The notes under the pieces: model-generated
What the model saw: only the letters and a program-made list of their open reading frames with translations
Told to the model about the DNA's origin: nothing
Database searches by the model: none
Shown here: piece by piece, positions 3,712 to 63,893 of the stretch
How the letters are laid out: every line of letters begins with the position of its first letter
Position numbering within the stretch: the first letter of the stretch is position 1
From: Patescibacteria group bacterium
GTDB lineage: Bacteria; Patescibacteriota; Minisyncoccia; Phycocordibacterales; UBA918
Assembly (NCBI GenBank): GCA_040386275.1
Contig: JAZKFU010000003.1
Coordinates: forward strand, 46,554-110,553
Direction: 5' to 3'
Length of the DNA: 64,000 bases
Translations under genes and position numbers: made by a program

Positions 3712-4935
3712 CTATTCTACTACAGCATTCGTGATACAAATTTGTTTATACACGTACGCAGAGGAACGAGGGGTTCGCTCTTGCGTAGCGTAATCTACCG
3801 CAATTAATCCAAAGCGCATTCCAAAGCCTAGTGCCCATTCGTAGTTATCAAGCAATGACCAGTACATGTGCCCGCGTACGTCAGCTCCTTTTTCAATGGC
3901 CCGCCAGGTTCCTAACACTTGTCCTTTAATATATTCAGCCCGCATACTATCAGCAGCGTCAGCAACGCCACCTTCTGACACAAACAAAGGTTTGTTGTAG
4001 CGCGCGAGCATCATGAGCGCTGTTTCAATTTTTTCTGGCGCAAAATTCCAATCCATGTCAGTCTTCCGCCAGGTTCTGTCGTCACCAAACTGCGTATAAA
4101 AATAATAATTAAGACCAATCGAATCACAACAGTCTTTCGTGCGATTCATAAATTTGTAGGTCCAATTGTAGTTTGCGATACGGGCTTTGATTTTATTAAC
4201 GAGACTCTTGTTCGCATCAAACACAATTACATGGTGCACAAAACTAACTTCCGTAGTTGGGGAAACTTTTTTAATGGCTTTGTAGGCTGCATTGTGACTT
4301 TTGGCCAAATTTTTCATCACCCGCAAATACAGAAATAACGGATTGATGCCTTTACTCGCTCTTGAATCAAGCATTTTGCCAGAGTTCGTAATAGAAATTA
4401 CATCCGTTACCGCAAAGCGTTTAAATGGAGGCCAACTACCGCGCAACCAGCCGTTACTCGCAAATACATTCGGTTCGTTCATGGTAGAAAAGTGATCACA
4501 AAGGTCACCTAATTGCTCCACTACGTACGCACAATACCGCGCAAAAATTTCGGGTGAATTTTTTTGTTCAAAGCTCCCTTTTTCAGAAAACCATAGTGGT
4601 TGAGTAAAATGCCAAATTGTAACGTAGGGTTTTAGTCCGCGTGCATGTAGGGCCTCGAGCACCTTTCGGTAGTGAACTATTGCCTCTTCATTAAATTTTC
4701 CTGGGGTAGGCTCAATCCGCGCCCACTCGACAGATAATCGGTGTGCGGTGTGGCCAAGCGATTTAGCTAAATCAAAATCAGCTTCGTACCGATTATAGTG
4801 ATCACAAGCGATTCCACATTCAGGCACGCGTCTTGCCCGAGCCGCTTCGGCCCAGTCGGTGTTATCAATACCGCCTTCGACTTGATAACTTGCCGTAGCC
4901 GAACCCCAGTAAAATCCTTCGGGAAATTTTTTCAT
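3712..4935 (-). CDS. Beta-glucosidase, glycoside hydrolase family 1
   Basis: N-terminal FPEGFYWGSATASYQVEGG. TMNEPN (acid/base) and FVSEGG (nucleophile region) motifs. Length 407 aa. Confidence 0.9.
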   Translation of the reverse strand: MKKFPEGFYWGSATASYQVEGGIDNTDWAEAARARRVPECGIACDHYNRYEADFDLAKSLGHTAHRLSVEWARIEPTPGKFNEEAIVHYRKVLEALHARGLKPYVTIWHFTQPLWFSEKGSFEQKNSPEIFARYCAYVVEQLGDLCDHFSTMNEPNVFASNGWLRGSWPPFKRFAVTDVISITNSGKMLDSRASKGINPLFLYLRVMKNLAKSHNAAYKAIKKVSPTTEVSFVHHVIVFDANKSLVNKIKARIANYNWTYKFMNRTKDCCDSIGLNYYFYTQFGDDRTWRKTDMDWNFAPEKIETALMMLARYNKPLFVSEGGVADAADSMRAEYIKGQVLGTWRAIEKGADVRGHMYWSLLDNYEWALGFGMRFGLIAVDYATQERTPRSSAYVYKQICITNAVVE

Positions 4936-4944
4936 AATTAAATG

Positions 4945-5035
4945 TTTCTCTTCTTACAGAAGCTGTACACCTTGTCAGTATTTTTTACAAAAATACTAGG
5001 CAAGGTCTTGCGAAAGTGCCTATGCACTTTCTCAC
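4945..5035 (+). repeat. Hairpin element core, copy A (same family as the tRNA-linked elements)
   Basis: cttcttacagaagctgtACACCTTGtc-agtattttttacaaaaatact-aggCAAGGTcttgcgaaagtgcctatgcactttc aligns with the tRNA-linked elements at 41634-41710 and 58001-58066. Flanked by an ~18-bp direct duplication of the GH1 start region (4917-4934 vs 5049-5067). Confidence 0.65.
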
Positions 5036-5154
5036 CCCAATAGAATTCTTCGGGAAATGTTTTTTTCAACCCGTTAGAAATTTGTTTGTCCATATGAATT
5101 GTAAATAAGTCTAACAGATTAAATCATTTTAAATATTTGTCATTATACCCTAAA

Positions 5155-5380
5155 GACTTTCAGAAACGAGTACAGTTCTAGGTGAGAAGTGACTCAATGT
5201 CACTTCGCAAGACTCATTGAGAGATTTTACAAAAATATCCAATGAGTGGACAGCTTCTGTAAGAAGGGCAAGGAAATTGTACAAAATGCGGTCCAGCGAT
5301 TTTCCTTAGGAGGAAAAATCGGGACATAAATTCAGAATAATCGCTTCGCTCATTTCTTCATTTGCCATTTGTGAAAGTTC
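5155..5380 (+). repeat. MITE-like intergenic repeat, copy B (long form, ~225 bp) containing an inverted copy of the hairpin core
   Basis: About 85-90% identical to 14850-14960 over the first ~110 bp, homologous through ~aattcagaat. Internal segment 5172-5262 is the reverse complement of element A. Hairpin GAAGTGAC-tcaat-GTCACTTC. Confidence 0.75.
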
Positions 5381-6012
5381 TAGACTAGACTAACAATCAT
5401 TAAGGTAGCTGCCACCAAGAATAATGAATACTCTACCACAGACACCCAATTTGGACGTAAATACCAGTAGATAATCCAATCATCCACCCCAAATCTAGTG
5501 ATGTAGTCCTGTAATTCATTTTCGGTCCACGACACCATAAAGCGTAATTTTGTTTCTTCAATCGGTAATTGTTTTAAATACCCACCGTCTGCGAGCATAG
5601 AACGTAAACGATTAGCGCGGCGTCCAAAAAATTTGTAATGACGCGTCGAAAGTGGCCACAGCAATTGAAGCCCCCAGCCAGTACCATATAAATCATTTAA
5701 TAAATGGAGCGTCACGGCGAGCACAATAATCAATCCCCAAAATCCGCCCCACAGAAGTACTGGTGTAAAAATAAGTAACGAAATGATTGGATAATGCAAA
5801 AATGTCCGGTGGTCTCGGGTGTAGCTGGCGTCAGTACTGACTTTCCCTCGTTTTAGTATCTCCGGAATCGCATCAATATCAGGCAACATCGCAAGCGGTA
5901 GCCCGATTAAAAAATACCACCAGAGTGGTTCGATATCATAGACAGCACACGCAATCAACACTGCAAAAATTCCATTCGCAAAATCCGCCAACAACGCCAG
6001 AATTGATTTCAT
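5380..6012 (-). CDS. Membrane-bound metal-dependent hydrolase-like protein (DUF457/YdjM-like)
   Basis: 210-aa polytopic protein with LAMLPDID and HLLNDL histidine/aspartate motifs, reminiscent of the YdjM family; weak call. Confidence 0.45.
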   Translation of the reverse strand: MKSILALLADFANGIFAVLIACAVYDIEPLWWYFLIGLPLAMLPDIDAIPEILKRGKVSTDASYTRDHRTFLHYPIISLLIFTPVLLWGGFWGLIIVLAVTLHLLNDLYGTGWGLQLLWPLSTRHYKFFGRRANRLRSMLADGGYLKQLPIEETKLRFMVSWTENELQDYITRFGVDDWIIYWYLRPNWVSVVEYSLFLVAATLMIVSLV

Positions 6013-14849: not shown

Positions 14850-15085
14850 TTTCATAAACGAGTACAGTTCTAGGTGAGAAGTGACTCAATGTCACTTCGC
14901 AAGACTCATTGAGGGATTTTGCAAAAATAACCAATGAGTGGACAGCTTCTGTAAGAAGCGAAAGGACAAAGACGGCAGCTGGTCCAGCGATTTTCCCAAG
15001 GGAAGAAAAAATCGGGACAGAAATTCAGAATTGTCGCTACACTCTGTTCTTCATTCCACAACGAAATGTGCCGTTTCTGGAAGCC
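14850..15085 (+). repeat. MITE-like intergenic repeat, copy C (long form) containing an inverted hairpin core
   Basis: Near-identical to copy B over ~110 bp. Right end caacgaaatgtgccgtttctggaag matches copies D/E. ORFs 14909..15142 and 14938..15168 inside it are judged spurious. Confidence 0.75.
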
Positions 15086-41610: not shown

Positions 41611-41769
41611 GAGCTGCCGATCAGGGACTCGAAGCTATACAGCTTCAGTACACCTTGTCGCTCATTTGTTTCCTATCGTAACAAAAGAGCTGGCAAGGTC
41701 TTCGAGTCCCTAATCGGACTAGCAATGGCAAAGGCCACAAATGTATTCACATTTGTGGCCTGCCTTTGC
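41611..41769. repeat. tRNA-Gln-linked hairpin element (copy F) plus spacer hairpin
   Basis: 41613-41633 (gctgccgatcagggactcgaa) duplicates the tRNA-Gln 3' end at 41770-41790. Core 41634-41710 has the ACACCTTGTC/GGCAAGGTC stem and ends in ttcgagtccctaatcgg, an inverted copy of the tRNA 3' end. Perfect hairpin GGCCACAAAT-n-ATTTGTGGCC at 41732-41760. Confidence 0.7.
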
Positions 41770-41839
41770 TGCCGATCAGGGACTCGAACCCCAATGACTT
41801 CCTCCAGAGGGAAGCATCCTACCATTAGATGAATCGGCA
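41769..41839 (-). tRNA. tRNA-Gln (anticodon CTG)
   Basis: Minus-strand cloverleaf: acceptor TGCCGAT/ATCGGCA (U1-A72 as in bacterial tRNA-Gln), D-loop with GG, anticodon stem CTTCC/GGAAG with loop CTCTGGA, T-arm TGGGG-TTCGAGT-CCCTG. Ends are +/-2 nt. Confidence 0.7.
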
Positions 41840-56266: not shown

Positions 56267-57808
56267 TTAAATAGAAAAGTCCCGAATAGAATACAGATCA
56301 CTCTCGTCTTTTACCGGAATTGCTGGCGATTGTGATACTACTTCTGCCGGTACAACTGCAGGTGGAATTGGCTCACTAGGTTGCGGAACAGGAGCTGCTG
56401 CCGGAGTAAATGATACTGGCTCAGGATTCGACGGCACTGGATTAGGCATGGCCGGAGCCATAACCGGTGCATTACCCATCAAGGACGCTAGTTGGTCTCT
56501 TAGTGAATTACTTGAAGCAACGGGAGTCGGCGCAGGAATGTGATTATGAGCAACATTCTCCGTGGCTGGGTTAGGTACAGCTGGTGCGATGACCTCTGAT
56601 TGTGGTGACGGTGACCACGTTTCAGATGGTGATTCTACTGCAGTGGTATCGATAACCAGTTCAGAAGTTACGACAGTGAGAGAATGGTCTGGGACAGGAA
56701 GGGTTGGTTCAGGAGTTTCAACTATTTCTGGTACCGAAAGGGGTATAAATGATGAAGCAGGTTCGGACATACCAGATGGCACTTCATTTACCCTCGGCTC
56801 CATCCACTCTGACTTTGGCATATTTGTCGGAGTATAGATAGATTTTTCTGGCACTAATTCTAAACCAGTTCGTTCAGTTAACGTTGCCAAGGCTTCAGCC
56901 TGTGAATCTGCGGGCGTGACCATGACTGCACCGACGCCGGCGACAACGGCCGCACCACTGACAGTAGCTCCTGAAGCAACTTTTTTAGCTTCACGTCGCA
57001 TCCCTTCCAGTATTTCTTCTAGGTCCTCTTGAGTAAAGTAATCAATGGACAACCGTCCGCCAAATTCAGTTTTAGTGATACTAACGCGAGTACCGAGAGT
57101 TTCCGTAAATTTCTTTTCCATCTCGAGCAAATCCGCGTCGTAATCATTCTTCTTCCGCATTTTTTCAGTCGCAATCCCCCGACTAATCCGCTCGACATCT
57201 CGTACCGATAGTTTTTTAAGTAGAGTCTCTCGAAACACTGTATCTTGTTCTTCGGGCCGGTCATTAAGCATCAACAATGCTCGACAATGCCCCTCAGAAA
57301 TATCACCCATCCGCAAAGCGGTCAGCATGTAATCAGGTAGTGCGAGCAACCGGATGGAGTTAGAAACGTACTCGCGACTGCGACCCATTTTTTTCGCTAC
57401 TTGAGAATGTGAGAGCCCGAACACATCCGCGAGCTGACGAAACGCAATGGCTCTATCAACCGCATTAAGATCTTCTCGTTGCAGGTTTTCGATAATCGCG
57501 AGTTCAAGCTTTTCCTGTTCACTTTGTTCCCCTTCACGAATAATCACCGGCACTTGGGCTACTCCGGCCATCTTACTCGCCCGCAGACGTCGCTCTCCGG
57601 CAATCAATTCATACTCACTGCGAAACGAACCATCTTCATTTTGAATTTCTTTTCGTGTGACGGTAAGTGGCTGCAGAATTCCGTACATCCGTACCGATTC
57701 AGCCAGCTCTTTTAATTTATCTTCATCAAATTCCCGCCGTGGTTGAAACGGATTGGGAACAATTTTTTCTACCTCAACCCAGAAAATTGAATCGCCTTGA
57801 AATGCCAT
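56267..57808 (-). CDS. parB: ParB/Spo0J-family partition protein with ~230-aa Pro/Ser/Val-rich low-complexity C-terminal extension
   Basis: ParB-N domain with GERRLRAS box and an HTH region, then a long disordered tail. No adjacent parA. Confidence 0.8.
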   Translation of the reverse strand: MAFQGDSIFWVEVEKIVPNPFQPRREFDEDKLKELAESVRMYGILQPLTVTRKEIQNEDGSFRSEYELIAGERRLRASKMAGVAQVPVIIREGEQSEQEKLELAIIENLQREDLNAVDRAIAFRQLADVFGLSHSQVAKKMGRSREYVSNSIRLLALPDYMLTALRMGDISEGHCRALLMLNDRPEEQDTVFRETLLKKLSVRDVERISRGIATEKMRKKNDYDADLLEMEKKFTETLGTRVSITKTEFGGRLSIDYFTQEDLEEILEGMRREAKKVASGATVSGAAVVAGVGAVMVTPADSQAEALATLTERTGLELVPEKSIYTPTNMPKSEWMEPRVNEVPSGMSEPASSFIPLSVPEIVETPEPTLPVPDHSLTVVTSELVIDTTAVESPSETWSPSPQSEVIAPAVPNPATENVAHNHIPAPTPVASSNSLRDQLASLMGNAPVMAPAMPNPVPSNPEPVSFTPAAAPVPQPSEPIPPAVVPAEVVSQSPAIPVKDESDLYSIRDFSI

Positions 57809-57940
57809 AAATAATAGATATACAGAAAATTACCTGAGCGTATCACCTCCCAAAAACCCTAACGGGTGCTCAACAGCTATTGTATCATACTACCCATTTT
57901 GGGGTGTTTATAAGTTTTTGTAACCCTTTAAATCTTTAAG

Positions 57941-58068
57941 CAAAACAAAATACCCAAGCAAAGCTTAGGTATTTTATTTGTGCTGGAGGAGGGACTTGAA
58001 ACTTACAGTTTCAGTACAGGTTGTCGCTATTTTTTCAAAATAGCTGGCAACCTTTTCAAGTCCCTGGG
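57941..58068. repeat. tRNA-Leu-linked element (copy G): 60-bp direct repeat (spacer hairpin + tRNA 3' end) flanking a 66-bp hairpin core
   Basis: 57941-58000 is identical to 58069-58128, which runs into tRNA-Leu. Core 58001-58066 is acttacag-tttcagtACAGGTTGtc-GCTATTTT-ttc-AAAATAGC-tgg-CAACCTtt-TTCAAGTCCC. Terminator-like palindrome AAAATACCCAAGC-AAA-GCTTAGGTATTTT in each repeat. Confidence 0.8.
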
Positions 58069-58108
58069 CAAAACAAAATACCCAAGCAAAGCTTAGGTAT
58101 TTTATTTG

Positions 58109-58189
58109 TGCTGGAGGAGGGACTTGAACCCTCAAGCCTTGCGGCATGCGATTTTGAGTCGCACGTGTATACCATTCCACCACTCCAGC
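58109..58189 (-). tRNA. tRNA-Leu (anticodon CAA), class II with long variable arm
   Basis: Acceptor GCTGGAG/CTCCAGC + A73, anticodon stem TGCGA/TCGCA with loop CTCAAAA, variable arm GCC-GCAA-GGC, T-arm GAGGG-TTCAAGT-CCCTC. 81 nt. Confidence 0.85.
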
Positions 58190-60050: not shown

Positions 60051-60121
60051 GGGCCTATAGTTCAGTGGTAGAATACCGGTTTCCAAAACCGTTGACCGAG
60101 GTTCAAGTCCTCGTGGGCCCG
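60051..60121 (+). tRNA. tRNA-Trp (anticodon CCA)
   Basis: Acceptor GGGCCTA/TGGGCCC + G73, D-arm GTTC-AGTGGTA-GAAT, anticodon loop TTCCAAA, T-arm CGAGG-TTCAAGT-CCTCG. Confidence 0.85.
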
Positions 60122-60182
60122 CTGAATAAACGAAGTGAGAGCAGAGGGACCACGATAGCAGCTTTTGAAAAAAGCGTTGCGC

Positions 60183-60278
60183 GGACTTGAAGAGGTTGCC
60201 AGCTATCTTTTTGACGAAGGAGAAAAGTAGTGACAACCTGTACAGAATTCGTAGAATTCAAGTCCTCGTGGGCCCGCC
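60183..60278. repeat. tRNA-Trp-linked hairpin element (copy H)
   Basis: Starts with GGACTTGAA (inverted T-loop). Core AGGTTG-cca-GCTATCTTTT...AAAAGTAGT-ga-CAACCT-gtacag. Ends with ttcaagtcctcgtgggcccgcc, a direct copy of the tRNA-Trp 3' 21 nt. Confidence 0.75.
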
Positions 60279-60288
60279 ACCGAAAACT

Positions 60289-60327
60289 AAAATACCACCA
60301 GCAAAAAAGCTGGTGGTATTTTAGTTT
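60289..60327 (+). terminator. Rho-independent terminator (AAAATACCACCAGC-aaaaaa-GCTGGTGGTATTTT + T-run)
   Basis: Perfect 14-bp palindrome directly after element H, analogous to the hairpins after the Leu and Gln elements. Confidence 0.6.
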
Positions 60328-60494
60328 AGCAAGTGCCCAATGGCACTTGCGGCGGTGGCGGGAGACGGAAGCATGTTGCGTTAGCAACAGCTGAGTCGGG
60401 GTCGCGGAAATTTCTGAAAGAAATATATTTATCTGCCTATACCTCAGTATACATACATTAAAAGTAGCTTAGAAGTCAAACTCACCAAATCATT

Positions 60495-61211
60495 TTACGA
60501 TTTAGTATCAAACAATAACTCTTGAGCCTCCAATAAACAGTTTACATCACCACTAAATAAAAGTTCATCTCCAACAAAAATGTAGTGCATAAATCCTTGT
60601 GAACCGTCAGAAAAAAGAACATTTGCTCGACGTACAGTTATATAGTCTATGTCAGTCATTGTCGTAAAATCTGCCTGTTGAATTATCGTTCCTTTACTAC
60701 TTTCCTTAGGAAAAATAATTGGGGCAACATCTGCTACAAGGCTTTTTTCCCATTCTTTTAAATATTTCATTTGATCTGCATACAAATCACCTTGATAGTT
60801 AAATTGCAATTTAAAACGAAGGGACATAACTACATTTGAGTTTTGTGATGCAGTAGCACACTTGTATAACTTCCAATCATTTACATCAATTAGACTACTG
60901 ATGTTGCTATTTATTTTCCCATTTAAAACTGTCGCAAAAGTTTCAATCGATATATTCCCTTCATTACCCGCAAATGCAGACCAAGTATTTTCTGTTTTAG
61001 TTGCACTTAGAAATTCAGTAAAGTTATTTTTCAAGTCCTGGTTAAATTCATTACTATTGTCATCAATGACCGTTTCGAATGCCACATAGTCGTTTTCAGA
61101 ATCAAGTTGAGTTACGGGAGTTGTAGATCTTTTTTGCATAATCGTTACCACTATTAAAATCAGTAGTACGGTTATTGTGAGGAAAAAAAACAATATAATT
61201 TTTTTATTCAT
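60495..61211 (-). CDS. Hypothetical membrane-anchored protein, AT-rich (~33% GC)
   Basis: ORF 60495..61232 with start at MNKKIILFFF and an N-terminal TM. No domain recognised. Composition differs sharply from its neighbours. Confidence 0.45.
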   Translation of the reverse strand: MNKKIILFFFLTITVLLILIVVTIMQKRSTTPVTQLDSENDYVAFETVIDDNSNEFNQDLKNNFTEFLSATKTENTWSAFAGNEGNISIETFATVLNGKINSNISSLIDVNDWKLYKCATASQNSNVVMSLRFKLQFNYQGDLYADQMKYLKEWEKSLVADVAPIIFPKESSKGTIIQQADFTTMTDIDYITVRRANVLFSDGSQGFMHYIFVGDELLFSGDVNCLLEAQELLFDTKS

Positions 61212-61222
61212 AGTGGATATAA

Positions 61223-62284
61223 TTATCTGCAAAAAGTTGATGCTCGCAATACTCTGTATCGGCTATCACTGTAATAACCACTGCCATTACTAATAATAAT
61301 TCCTCTGTTTGTTCCTGCAGCATGGATAACTTGTGAACAACCATTATTCATACAAATTACCACATGACCTGCGCCATTAGTTCTATGAATCAATGCATCG
61401 CCAGTTTGAAGACTGCTAGGGCTACCGATGGGAGCGGAGTAGCGTATCATATCTCCCGTATAAGTACCGATTCGACGACATCCTGCTGCAGCATATGCAT
61501 CGTTAACAAGCTCAGAACAGTCTGTATAGCCCGGACTACCAGTACAAGAATTTCGAAGAGGCTGACTATATTGGCATCGTCGTTGTCGTTGTGCTTCCGC
61601 AAACCGTACAATAGCACTATTGCCTCCAGTACCAATTGGAGCTACATAATCTCCTCCACCGCCGCCCGCACCACCACCACCTAACTCAGACCCAGGTACA
61701 GCTACCGCGGTTGGATCTGGCTCTTCTGCCTCAAGGTATTCTACTTCATCTTGCTCGACCTCATTAAATACAGTTTCAACTTGGTTCTGGCAAGTTACCT
61801 CACTCCAAAACAAATACCCAGAAGCGGTTCCGCCCGCGACAATTTGCCCAGGATTACCATCTGTTCCAACTAACGCCCGCATGATGGTGTCTACAATAAG
61901 CCAGGCAGCTAAAATAATCATAAAGCCAACAATGGCGTTTATAAATGAGGACTTGGCTTCATCGAGCGCATGATGATTCCCCCCTGACGTTACCAACTTC
62001 ACTCCCGCAATAGCGAGCAAAAGTGCGAAGATAACAAATAGTATCCCAATGAGCCAGGTAATTAATCCATTGGCCATCGACACAACATTACAAGCGCTAC
62101 AATCTAAACCAGTACAACCCGACAACTGCGCTAAACCAAGGTCACCTGCAAACGCAGACGGCACAAAAAACCCAAACAGAAAGACTAGTAAGAATATTAT
62201 GGGAACTATTTTCATATTATAGTTTGGCAGTATCGGGACAGAAACTAAACCGGTAATCAAACCCAGAAGCAACTTCATCAACAT
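61223..62284 (-). CDS. VirB2/TrbC-pilin-like double-TM module fused to a CHAP/NlpC-P60-type peptidoglycan amidase/peptidase domain
   Basis: Signal peptide (MKIVPIIFLLVFLFGFFVPSAFA), Cys-rich loop CTGLDCSAC, two hydrophobic helices around KLVTSGGN...EAKSS, Gly-rich linker. C-terminal DCSELVNDAY (Cys) and GHVVIC (His) resemble a CHAP catalytic pair. Start may be the internal Met. Confidence 0.55.
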   Translation of the reverse strand: MLMKLLLGLITGLVSVPILPNYNMKIVPIIFLLVFLFGFFVPSAFAGDLGLAQLSGCTGLDCSACNVVSMANGLITWLIGILFVIFALLLAIAGVKLVTSGGNHHALDEAKSSFINAIVGFMIILAAWLIVDTIMRALVGTDGNPGQIVAGGTASGYLFWSEVTCQNQVETVFNEVEQDEVEYLEAEEPDPTAVAVPGSELGGGGAGGGGGDYVAPIGTGGNSAIVRFAEAQRQRRCQYSQPLRNSCTGSPGYTDCSELVNDAYAAAGCRRIGTYTGDMIRYSAPIGSPSSLQTGDALIHRTNGAGHVVICMNNGCSQVIHAAGTNRGIIISNGSGYYSDSRYRVLRASTFCR

Positions 62285-62714
62285 ATCCCGGAACCGTAAC
62301 TACATATGATAGTTGGCACATTTCCTCTTCATCTATTTTTAATAAATCTTTTAAATAGACTTCGGCTGCTAGCCTACTTTGAGCAAATGGTTTTTGAAGA
62401 AGCGCTATATTAAAGGTGCCAGTATTTTTATCAAACATGACAACGTAGTTAGGTAGTTTGCTCGGAGTTTCTGCAGAAGGGAAAGTATTGCCCAAGGAAT
62501 ACAAACCAGGGTTTTGAACATCCGGCGCTACGGATTCATCTTTCAAAAAATTATTGGTTACTACATTACCTTCGGTAGACGGAAAGGTGACTTGCGAATC
62601 AGTGTATTCAACAGTAGTTACTGGTGTTGAATTATTTTTTGTATATATAATTCCCCCAATCACTATTACAAGCACAATGATTACCGCCAATATGATATAT
62701 ACGTTTTTATTCAT
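62217..62714 (-). CDS. Hypothetical membrane-anchored protein
   Basis: 165 aa with an N-terminal TM, lying between the two pilin-like paralogs. Confidence 0.4.
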   Translation of the reverse strand: MNKNVYIILAVIIVLVIVIGGIIYTKNNSTPVTTVEYTDSQVTFPSTEGNVVTNNFLKDESVAPDVQNPGLYSLGNTFPSAETPSKLPNYVVMFDKNTGTFNIALLQKPFAQSRLAAEVYLKDLLKIDEEEMCQLSYVVTVPGYVDEVASGFDYRFSFCPDTAKL

Positions 62715-62725
62715 GTTGTTTTATG

Positions 62726-63862
62726 TTAGCCACCATAACGCGTAATACATTGCATCGCTCGTGAATTGCAATTGGCACATGTCCAATCATTATACCCATT
62801 ACGCCTTACTATATTAACTGCTACCCTGGTATTACAACTGGCATTCTGACAACTTGTAGCATGGTCACTACAGGAACCCCCAACGTTATATAAATTCCAG
62901 GTCGTTCGCACAATTTGAAATAGCCCACAAGCACTAGAATTAGAACCAGGATGAGTAACATTATATGGTGGAGTTGCGGGGTTACCCGAGCTCTCGGTCA
63001 TAGCAATACACGACATTACATTTGCCTGTGTAATAGTCATGCCAGCCGCGCGTAACGCAGGGACGCTACAGTAGGTATTAGTACATTGCGGTAAACTACC
63101 CCCTGTCCCACCACCACTGACTTGTCGCGGAGCACACAGTACAGCACTTCCGGCAGCGTTAAGGGTTGGCGTACCAGGCGCAGCGCGACACTGTGCTTCT
63201 TGAGCCGAACAATCATACTCATTTACTCCCGGCGGTCCTGGCAGAAGTCTACAGGCGGCATTATAAGAACCAGCTGGAGCTGAAGAACCTCCTGCAGTAC
63301 TCCCCGCCGGCACCCAACCCTGCACACCACCCAGCCCTTCCTCAAGCGAAAGGTACTCAATAGCATCTTGTGTAACGGTAATCGAGCGAGCCAGTGGCTG
63401 ATCAACACAGCTTATTTGATTCCAGACACCAAAACTATATGTCCCATCTTGAAGCAACAAAGCGCGCAACCCATAGTCGAGCACCAACCACGCCGCTAAC
63501 ACAATTAAGTATCCAATCAACAAATTAGTCATGGAACTTTTCGCTTCTTCTTTCGCACTAGAATTACCCGCTGACGTTACTAATCGTGCCCCCGCCACAA
63601 CGATCAAAATCGCCGCAATCACCCCGAGTATCATCACGAGCCACCCCACAACATTGTTAACCAATACCACCACATGACATGCCTGACACGGCGGTTCACC
63701 TGCTCCGCCACACGCTGGCACCAAACCAGCCGCCCCGACCGACACCGGAACAATAAATATACAAACCATTACCACAAGGGCTACCAGGAGTTTCTGCATT
63801 ACCAATAAGCTTACCACACAACCCCTTTCTAAATACCCGAAACTGTGATAATTTGTACCCAC
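62726..63862 (-). CDS. VirB2/TrbC-pilin-like double-TM module fused to a lytic transglycosylase (SLT) domain
   Basis: N-terminal module paralogous to 61223..62284 (RLVTSAGN...EAKSS...VLAAWLVLD). C-terminal IAMTESSGNP and GLFQI, the ES / GLxQ signatures of family-1 lytic transglycosylases. Cys-rich. Confidence 0.6.
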   Translation of the reverse strand: MGTNYHSFGYLERGCVVSLLVMQKLLVALVVMVCIFIVPVSVGAAGLVPACGGAGEPPCQACHVVVLVNNVVGWLVMILGVIAAILIVVAGARLVTSAGNSSAKEEAKSSMTNLLIGYLIVLAAWLVLDYGLRALLLQDGTYSFGVWNQISCVDQPLARSITVTQDAIEYLSLEEGLGGVQGWVPAGSTAGGSSAPAGSYNAACRLLPGPPGVNEYDCSAQEAQCRAAPGTPTLNAAGSAVLCAPRQVSGGGTGGSLPQCTNTYCSVPALRAAGMTITQANVMSCIAMTESSGNPATPPYNVTHPGSNSSACGLFQIVRTTWNLYNVGGSCSDHATSCQNASCNTRVAVNIVRRNGYNDWTCANCNSRAMQCITRYGG

Positions 63863-63893
63863 GCGATTTTGACCAAAATCGCTCTAAATAACC

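Follow-up and report, generated by a model that had tools for sequence, protein, structure and literature searches.

The 64,000-nucleotide (nt) stretch of a Patescibacteria group bacterium that is considered here (GenBank assembly GCA_040386275.1, contig JAZKFU010000003.1, positions 46,554 to 110,553 of the forward strand; hereafter the window) carries a tRNA-Trp gene whose final nucleotides recur a short distance downstream, and the folded segment between the two copies, designated E, recurs at other tRNA genes of the same stretch. The question raised by this locus is whether E was inserted behind the tRNA gene, and by which route, or whether it belongs to the host's own tRNA biology. The analysis below characterizes E as a structured insertion-element family, present in neither Rfam nor the papers searched, whose gene-healing repeats and target-matched antisense arm are unusual among small non-autonomous elements.

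Structure of the Copy at the tRNA-Trp Gene

The intact tRNA-Trp(CCA) gene was located by ARAGORN at 60051-60122 (Rfam: 60051-60121, 66.4 bits) on the plus strand, like all parts of this copy. Its final 21 nt, tRNA positions 54-74, constitute the first repeat copy X1 (60102-60122), and a second copy of the same positions, X2 (TTCAAGTCCTCGTGGGCCCGC, 60257-60277), is identical in 21 of 21 nt, so that the two bracket an insert of 134 nt (60123-60256) without any open reading frame (ORF). The element begins directly after the tRNA, which the preliminary description had overlooked, with a leader TGAATAAACGAAGTGAGAGCAGA (60123-60145) that contains GTGAG at 60135-60139 as the end of ..AACGAAGTGAG (60125-60139), and GTGAG or TGAG also forms the 5' end of gene-inserted copies; leaders of this type (..ACGAAGTGAG) are also found 3' of other tRNAs in the loci L019, L049, L097, and L116, always after nucleotide 74. 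Two further parts escaped the first inspection, namely, the antisense segment X'a (GGGACCACGA, 60146-60155, read from the sequence), which is complementary in 9 of 10 positions to the T-stem 3' strand and the start of the acceptor 3' strand (TCGTGGGCCC), and the Px hairpin with a GAAA loop (GCAGCTTTTGAAAAAAGCGTTGC, 60158-60180). The second antisense segment X'b (GGACTTGAA, 60183-60191), located 60-61 nt past the tRNA, reads as the reverse complement of TTCAAGTCC, bases of the T-loop and T-stem that reach the start of the T-stem 3' strand. The same split antisense layout was seen in L008, L038, L046, L064, L066, L076, and L080, and homologous Px hairpins occupy the same position in L049, L061, and L067.

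The 3' half of the copy consists of the hairpin P2 (60194-60238; GGTTG, a CCA-GA internal loop, an upper stem, and CAACC), the junction TGTACA (60239-60244), of which TGTAC is invariant in an alignment of 96 sequences, and the hairpin P3 (GAATTC-GTA-GAATTC, 60245-60259), the final 3 nt of which coincide with T54-C56 of the repeat copy. A covariance model of the family, R1, matches this region at 60190-60260 with 69.7 bits. X2 runs into the gene's original CCA (60277-60279), and the original terminator, a perfect 14-bp hairpin with a T-rich tail (60289-60327), belongs to the ancestral flank outside the element; it was not called by a simple terminator scan because its T run is interrupted. All features first reported for this locus (the inverse of the T-loop, the stem, the 21-nt copy, the 14-bp terminator, and the GC-rich segment behind it) are present at the coordinates given for them. 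The predicted closing helix between X' and X2 has a weaker fold signal in this copy (z = -2.0). A sigma-70-like match, GTGACA-16-TAGAAT (10/12; 60230-60257, plus strand), faces X2, and the idea of an outward promoter was rejected: the match is made from the invariant GACA and GTA of E, and since only 7 of 96 cores meet sigma-70-like criteria it is probably due to chance.

Empty Sites and the GC-Rich Module

The comparison with relatives indicates that E is an insertion. The Kaiserbacteria locus L104 shares with the window the miaA gene (MiaA 78% at the amino acid level), tRNA-Trp, three minus-strand ORFs, and tRNA-Tyr, and both there and in L019 the tRNA-Trp gene is followed directly by the terminator, homologous to that of the window in L104, and by the GC-rich module, so that the Trp site is empty. 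The absence of E from the same tRNA-Trp site of a syntenic relative identifies it as inserted DNA, as the preliminary description had supposed; in the window it is X2, not X1, that is contiguous with the ancestral flank including the encoded CCA. Two other suggestions of that description are contradicted by the same loci. The interval between tRNA-Trp and tRNA-Tyr (60330-63890) was proposed to be an island, but homologous ORFs (70%, 58%, and 33% at the amino acid level) fill it in L104, where the Trp site is empty. The GC-rich segment was regarded as a possible remnant of element cargo, but it stands in the same place in relatives without the element.

The segment comprises a hairpin followed by GGGAGACGG..hairpin..CAGCTGAGTCGGGGTCG (60329-60404, plus strand), is extended in relatives by GAGAACACTTAGTAG..GTGACCGC, and has no match in Rfam. 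Past the tRNA-Trp terminator there is one copy in the window, three in L104 (2108-2540), and two in L019 (oriented, ~5380-5640), with folds of z = -4.9 (window) and -6.5, and one of the L104 copies has itself been hit by an E insertion at GTCGGG^TCGAG. The module is therefore ancestral flank and an independent repeat family, not cargo of E.

Fold, Covariation, and Distribution of the Family

Copies of E are ~70-135 nt long, non-coding, and folded in an RNA-like manner, with an optional 5' hairpin Px after (G)TGAG, then AAGA, P2 with a CCN/GA internal loop, TGTAC, and P3 with a GTA loop. The conserved core combines the covarying hairpins P2 and P3 with the invariant junction bases AAGA, TTGCC, GACAA, TGTAC, and GTA (as invariant unpaired bases of the 96-core alignment, AA.A, TTGCC, GACAA, TGTAC, and GTA). 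Over these 96 cores pairing is found in 91.9% of cells (71.9% after shuffling), both partners vary in 16 of 20 pairs (6 of 7 in P3), and the covariation score is 0.514 versus 0.163 after shuffling, with 0 of 500 shuffles as high and slid-register controls at 0.145 or less. Helix 1 of P2 is paired in 99.6% and helix 2 in 95.6%, while the base of P2 alternates between GG..CC and CC..GG at a ratio of 46:49; the Px stems of 43 gene-inserted copies have 6.3 of 7 positions paired versus 4.2 with shuffled partners. Since G-U combinations outnumber A-C combinations by 73 to 28, the folded strand is the sense strand of the host gene or tRNA.

A core pattern derived from the shared core, TTGCC..GACAASSTGTAC-N7-GTA, has 4 matches in the window versus 0.00 expected, and R1 scores the four canonical window copies (at tRNA-Trp, tRNA-Leu, tRNA-Gln, and the 5' end of a GH1 glucosidase gene) with 69-77 bits and E = 1e-15 to 1e-17. 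With one genome per species the pattern was found at no fewer than 119 loci. Among the matches listed, ~100 are true copies, with AAGA or AAAA plus SS upstream and the same hairpins, and nearly all of them come from metagenome-assembled genomes (MAGs) of Patescibacteria, including Saccharibacteria, Kaiserbacteria, Paceibacteria/Parcubacteria, Nomurabacteria, and Zambryskibacteria; ~12 of the matches listed lie in other phyla and are chance matches without the fold. A scan of viral contigs returned 5 matches, all of them by chance (no AAGASS, no P2 or P3), and phage and plasmid collections contained no match to E. Core identity is 0.71 within a genome versus 0.64 between genomes, the nearest neighbours of a core are often located at other tRNAs in other classes, and the cores of copies at different tRNAs reach 92% identity between Kaiserbacteria and Saccharibacteria.

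Rfam 15 gathering scans of the window and 12 loci reported only tRNAs and hairpin noise, Rfam 15 E-value scans of three element regions (E <= 10) found no family matching E, and the papers reached by full-text literature search do not describe it. The group I introns of Patescibacteria tRNAs, which sit in the anticodon loop (PMC13011429), are different from E. Hammerhead, hairpin, and twister ribozymes and group II domain V were dismissed, as the required core bases are absent by eye, and Rfam agrees.

These data also decide on the explanation that E is no element at all, but consists of att remnants left as scars by ordinary integrase-mediated islands, of repeats that arose by chance, or of artefacts of assembly. 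The direct repeat from the T-loop to the tRNA 3' end does speak for it, being, as Williams reportedly set out in 2002, the classical att signature at tRNA genes. Against it, the same conserved 70-nt core stands between the repeats in the ~100 true copies among the matches listed, from dozens of independent assemblies, the model E-values are as low as given above, no integrase is present in the window or near 91 loci, and the size is uniform, so that pattern counts, covariation, and covariance-model scores effectively refute this explanation.

Several contigs of MAGs labelled Flavobacteriia or Actinomycetota hold many E copies together with Patescibacteria-type synteny (miaA, parB, and T4SS-pilin genes), namely, L019, L055, L066, and L101 (JBLHQB, labelled Patiriisocius) and L015, L059, and L076 (JBLIMJ, labelled Acidimicrobiales); these Patescibacteria-type contigs are probably mis-binned or mislabelled.

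Copies Linked to tRNA Genes

In 36 copies the distance downstream of a tRNA is 46-95 nt, and 11 amino-acid specificities are represented. All 36 tRNA-linked copies within 130 nt are placed 3' of the tRNA and co-oriented with it, whichever genomic strand is used, which agrees with the fixed relative orientation noticed first at the three window copies; the element is not restricted to tRNAs, and E is also found in 5' ends of protein genes, in 5' parts of tRNAs, and in other repeats. The earlier suggestion that insertion or function may be tied to the tRNA transcript is compatible with the folding of the tRNA-sense strand and with an antisense arm that follows each tRNA. The joints at tRNA genes are fixed, after nucleotide 74 and before nucleotide 54/55. 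The sense segment X2 starts directly at P3, whose 3' strand already includes T54-C56, and covers the tRNA from T54/T55 to nucleotide 73-74, so that the tRNA keeps its whole 3' end and the original CCA, trailer, and terminator remain attached to X2. The repeat reaches through the terminator in three loci (61 nt at the window tRNA-Leu, 72 nt in L079, and 79 nt in L103).

The antisense arm is matched to the local tRNA. X'b, directly in front of AAGA, copies the T-loop and the T-stem 3' strand in antisense orientation. Over the 36 loci, 88.8% of cells show pairing between X'b and the tRNA of the same locus; both partners vary in 7 of the 12 pairs, and double changes occur at 57 and 59, which are variable positions of the T-loop. 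Full-length copies possess the second antisense segment X'a, directed to the acceptor 3' strand, further upstream, with Px splitting X'a and X'b at about nucleotide 65/66. Where the two tRNA ends of a locus differ, it is X2 that has decayed, often by small indels in its T-loop part, and X' is still paired 12/12 with the real tRNA.

Both further tRNA-linked copies of the window, already recognized in the preliminary description, were confirmed, which makes the Trp copy a genuine third one. At tRNA-Leu(CAA) the copy occupies 57940-58128 on the minus strand (R1 77 bits) and consists of X1 with terminator (58068-58128), X'b (58055-58064), P2 (58019-58052), P3 (57997-58013), and X2 with terminator (57940-58000); 61 of 61 nt are duplicated, terminator included, and the fold (z = -5.3) has a long predicted X':X2 closing helix with a three-way junction inside. 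At tRNA-Gln(CTG) the copy occupies 41613-41788 on the minus strand (R1 69.4 bits; 21 of 21 nt duplicated) and consists of X1 (41768-41788), a hairpin (41727-41767), X' (41701-41721), P2 (41653-41698), P3 (41630-41647), and X2 (41613-41633), and again a closing helix is predicted around the three-way junction (z = -7.6). Past the Gln X2 the flank is similar to the trailer found at tRNA-Gln in L093, where the site is empty, which assigns the hairpin at 41727-41767 to the insert.

Taken by themselves, the tRNA-linked copies would also suit a host-functional non-coding RNA. According to this explanation E and its X' and X2 segments would be cut from the read-through transcript as a mimic of a tRNA minihelix, with X':X2 as the acceptor/T-stem helix, and act on tRNA maturation, on tRNA turnover, or on a tRNA-binding factor, while the scattered distribution would result from ancient origin and loss. 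It would account for the strong structural covariation, the deep conservation across Patescibacteria classes, the presence of E at 3 of 3 window tRNAs with visible downstream sequence, the constant co-orientation with the tRNA, and the maintained complementarity of X' to the tRNA while X2 decays; moreover, the predicted closing helix would leave a 3' tail resembling a tRNA end, the helix being predicted as long for the Gln and Leu copies and weak for Trp. But the core is found as well in the 5' ends of protein genes, in a P-loop codon, in 5' parts of tRNAs, and in other repeats, sometimes disruptively, close relatives lack E at the same tRNA, nested and tandem copies exist, and tRNA-Thr and tRNA-Met carry no E in the sampled element-bearing loci, in which 61 of 117 tRNAs are without it. 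A host RNA of this kind is accordingly judged unlikely.

Two structural peculiarities were seen at tRNA-Leu. In L019 two serial elements follow the gene, and the tRNA 3' end differs from the displaced copy; the window segment 56267-58189 with tRNA-Leu(CAA) and E is inverted relative to parB when compared with L019. Dispersed E copies may mediate rearrangements.

Copies Inside Genes and at Other Targets

The remaining copies follow ...RGG^TGAG in genes, a consensus 5' joint that resembles G53^T54 of the T-arm. Significant flanking repeats surround most copies, with target duplications of 0-79 nt in total range, 21-22 nt at tRNAs, and 30-68 nt at GH1, msrA, tRNA-fMet, tRNA-Pro, and a P-loop kinase; because a direct target repeat flanks nearly every E, the host gene stays whole. 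The example in the window is the copy at the 5' end of the GH1 beta-glucosidase gene (4904-5066, element 4948-5034, minus strand; R1 71.7 bits), which is not linked to a tRNA. It comprises the displaced first ~12 codons (5035-5066), TGAG-Px-CGC (5010-5034), P2 (4970-5005), P3 (4950-4964), and the restored gene start (4904-4935). E is placed after codon 12 at ..TGGGG^TGAG, with its own 5' hairpin and no antisense arm, and is followed by a spacer and by a second set of the first 12 codons that runs on into the gene. L004, L016, and L053 have the same arrangement.

Comparable X-E-X structures were found at msrA (L073, and as three tandem units in L095), at the tRNA-fMet leader with nucleotides 1-8 (L003, L052, and L113), at the 5' half of tRNA-Pro(GGG) (L111), at a ribosome-binding site (L043, 17 nt), and at a P-loop kinase gene (L040), where 41 nt are duplicated with 3 synonymous differences and the displaced fragment abuts the native upstream gene. 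The L095 units (minus strand, ~5500-6000) are three perfect 160-nt tandem repeats, each combining 68 nt of the msrA 5' end with E, an array-like amplification upstream of an intact msrA. In L106 one E is nested in P3 of another, which together with L095, L059, and L019 makes up the nested and tandem copies. In L003 (minus strand) the tRNA-fMet downstream of E breaks after the anticodon loop (..GGCTCATA|GGAAACTGTGACCC..), which, judged from the sequence, suggests an anticodon-loop intron.

In the GH1 and kinase repeats the displaced and functional copies differ almost only synonymously (counted by eye), and those of tRNA-Pro differ in stems only, a pattern to be anticipated where one copy stems from a different allele, whether brought in as a replacement end or acquired through allelic replacement at a later time, and not where a local duplicate decays at random. 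A diversity-generating retroelement with template and variable repeats was discarded as a candidate, the differences in GH1 and the kinase being, by eye, not adenine-specific.

Clean insertions without duplication are present in the GC-rich module of L104 and in the kinase gene of L110 (4830-5470), where E lies inside the Walker A codons, at the same codon as in L040, and the ORF has an in-frame TAA. Removal of E restores the frame, GAGKG|TVVEYL, and this might point to an intron-like element that is removed at the RNA level (5' G^GUGAG ... GUAAG 3'), for which the conserved GUGAG 5' end, the GUA-containing 3' hairpin, and the GNRA-type loops could also be adduced. Any clean insertion, however, is equally expected to restore the frame, the L110 gene contains an in-frame stop, Rfam finds no group I or group II intron core, and at most insertions in essential genes the gene end is duplicated with its own start codon, which would be needless if E were spliced. 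We therefore consider splicing highly improbable.

A divergent subfamily, E', has a P2 that differs in sequence yet is still complementary and is represented in the window twice on the plus strand, by the copies at 5181-5266 (P2 CTCATTGAG..CAATGAG, junction TGGAC; R1 28.1 bits, E = 5e-5, R1 range 5209-5268) and at 14873-14958 (R1 27.7 bits, R1 range 14901-14960), as well as in L016, L035, L071, and L115. The covariance-model search of the window thus yields two divergent copies in addition to the four canonical ones; the fourth canonical copy, at GH1, and both divergent ones had been overlooked in the preliminary description. Both window E' copies sit in ~230-nt repeat units (5181-5330 and 14873-15020, plus strand) with a conserved 3' extension (GGTCCAGCGATTTTCC..GGAAAAATCGGGACA); the units are intergenic and antisense to the flanking genes, and the first is head-to-head with the GH1 copy.

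Search for a Mobilizing Enzyme and Comparison with Known Systems

ORF clustering within 8 kb around 91 loci revealed housekeeping families only and no recurrent ORF family, and a Pfam search of 59 window ORFs found no transposase, integrase, reverse transcriptase, or HNH domain. Neither tnpA nor tnpB is present in the 64-kb window or in the 91 8-kb loci, and there is no recombinase, including those of the IS110-type DEDD group, in the window or near the copies of the 91 loci. The competence protein DprA is encoded in the window; Saccharibacteria are naturally competent (PMC10633639 and PMC10187176).

One related system is that of islands and prophages that enter tRNA T-loops via tyrosine recombinases (also phage 21 and e14 in icd). 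Like E, they leave a direct repeat from the T-loop to the 3' end, the gene works since one copy replaces the displaced end, the copies show allele-like differences, and serial stacking occurs (as with E in L019). Unlike these islands, the E insert is 70-190 nt and not kilobases long, lacks integrase and ORF, has an RNA-type fold and an internal antisense copy of the target, and serves many tRNAs as well as protein genes with one core family.

MITEs (miniature transposable elements with inverted repeats), REP/REPIN sequences, Rickettsia palindromic elements, and IS200/IS605-derived PATEs, small repeats of reduced or compact genomes, are likewise short, non-coding, structured, and multi-copy; they are mobilized in trans if at all, can sit in genes, and are lineage-restricted. 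In contrast to MITEs, E has no terminal inverted repeats of its own, as its inverted segments copy the local tRNA and differ per locus, and the gene-inserted copies have no inverted segments at all; neither is there a fixed short target duplication, the repeats being 0, 17, 21-22, 30-68, and up to 79 nt. Long, target-healing duplications of gene ends, a target-matched antisense arm, and deeply conserved unpaired junction bases set E apart from small repeats in general.

The bridge RNA or seekRNA of IS110 and the omega-RNA of TnpB and IscB share with E a conserved scaffold that adjoins target-identical sequence, and the binding loop of the bridge RNA resembles the X'a-Px-X'b arrangement, in which two target-matching segments surround a hairpin. 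E differs from these guide RNAs in that no recombinase or nuclease gene is attached, gene-inserted copies lack target-matching segments, and its segments (~10 + 10 nt antisense and 21 nt sense) refer to the same stretch and are mutually complementary.

E might be a miniature element of IS200/IS605 type (single-strand, HUH) or similar, with Px and P3 in the role of subterminal end hairpins and with RGG^T as the motif targeted; in a variant, P2/P3 may be an omega-RNA-like scaffold and X2 the guide for a TnpB/IscB-like protein encoded elsewhere, with the long repeats arising by secondary repair. Subterminal hairpins in the absence of element-owned terminal inverted repeats, the conserved 5' target ..RGG^TGAG, the duplication-free insertions in L104 and L110, the order of scaffold and 21-nt target-identical 3' segment, and the strand-specific fold are all in keeping with it. 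Most E copies, however, are flanked by long target repeats, and elements of this family are not known to produce any; tnpA and tnpB are missing as stated above, no similarity to Rfam IS605-orfB or HEARO is detectable at E <= 10, the replication-strand bias of E copies is only weak (68:40), and a guide identical to the adjacent intact tRNA would target itself. Such an origin is regarded as quite unlikely.

Variants of the Neurospora Mauriceville and Varkud retroplasmids offer another precedent. They integrate at tRNA genes and have tRNA sequence on both sides, and Chiang et al. are said to have shown in 1994 that hybrid cDNA of such a variant was integrated at a tRNA gene by homologous recombination. 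Like E, they are joined to tRNA 3' sequence and their tRNA-like end is recognized (PMC9925561 for the tRNA-initiated cDNA), and PMC9925561, citing Chiang and Lambowitz 1997, states that the Mauriceville reverse transcriptase starts at tRNA 3' ends. E might correspondingly be retro-mobile, with a reverse transcriptase acting in trans that copies E RNA and primes on, or switches to, the tRNA 3' end, the hybrid cDNA then being integrated by homologous recombination. The strict co-orientation, suggestive of dependence on host transcription, the RNA-type features (GNRA-type loops and G-U pairs), the joints at the tRNA-defined nucleotides 74 and 54, the variable repeat length, and the resemblance of the antisense tRNA 3' segment to a primer-binding site would fit. 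The Neurospora retroplasmid, however, is a mitochondrial plasmid that encodes its own reverse transcriptase, while no such enzyme was found in the window or the loci; the junctions of E have no CCA or A-tail, as X1 ends at C74, and the order X'...core...X is not what simple tRNA priming gives. Retro-mobility in this form appears very doubtful.

Proposed Explanation

On the whole, E is interpreted with slightly better than even confidence, and with less for the details, as a Patescibacteria-wide non-autonomous mobile element that is mobilized in trans. It would behave as an integrative element in miniature, bringing along or producing a replacement for the gene end. The unit would consist at tRNAs of X, leader or hairpin, X', and core, and at 5' gene ends of core, spacer, and X with its own start codon, and recombination at the GG^T site (G53^T54 in the T-arm) would displace the native end. 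E would presumably be read through from the host gene, and the fold of its RNA, or of single-stranded DNA, would be recognized by a trans-encoded enzyme, while X' would pair with the tRNA 3' end into a closing helix similar to the acceptor/T-arm, possibly for target recognition. Spread between genomes would use the duplicated conserved segment as a homology arm in natural transformation.

Several observations weigh against this explanation. No mobilizing enzyme, circular junction, or excision product was seen, and we know of no enzyme or transposase that makes target repeats of 0-79 nt. A Campbell-type model leaves unexplained how one core family came by gene ends and antisense arms that match 11 or more tRNA specificities as well as several protein genes, and in L019 it is X1, not X2, that agrees with the tRNA body, which would not be expected from simple T-loop integration. 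Likeness within genomes barely exceeds that between genomes (0.71 versus 0.64), which gives no sign of recent bursts. The cross-class core identity of up to 92% and the persistent match of X' to the tRNA could reflect selection for a host function. Finally, all genomes compared, the window excepted, are MAGs or contigs.

A more specific possibility, rather unlikely as a whole, is that E is a programmable RNA-structured homing element, in which X'a/X'b, together with the strand of P3 that forms pairs with the initial bases of the 3' flank, would serve as guides. They would direct a trans-encoded Patescibacteria enzyme to the stretch from the T-loop to the 3' end of the chosen tRNA, and the carried sense copy would repair the gene. 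The 11 or more tRNA specificities would then be natural instances of retargeting, and E would represent a new class of guide-bearing, gene-healing mobile RNA/DNA element.

Neighbouring Genes

Two secreted proteins encoded on the minus strand of the window between tRNA-Trp and tRNA-Tyr (61223-62284 and 62726-63862), which relatives also possess, combine an N-terminal T4SS_pilin domain (PF18895) with NlpC/P60 or SLT_3 lysozyme-like domains. The ParB homologue at 56267-57808 (minus strand) has a proline/serine/alanine-rich C-terminal extension of ~240 residues past ParB_C.

Significance

Patescibacteria have very small genomes with few recognized mobile elements, and a conserved, folded element of ~100 nt adjoins a large share of their tRNA genes and several gene 5' ends. 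E can confuse the annotation of tRNAs, pseudogenes, and gene starts, and as a dispersed repeat it may drive rearrangements. If it is mobile, its size would be unusually small for such an element and its target would never be killed, because the gene end is duplicated or replaced, and its target-matched antisense arm would point to a possible natural system of retargetable recognition together with a trans-acting enzyme. If, instead, it is a host RNA, it would add a new class of tRNA-linked RNA to a group that makes up a quarter of bacterial diversity.

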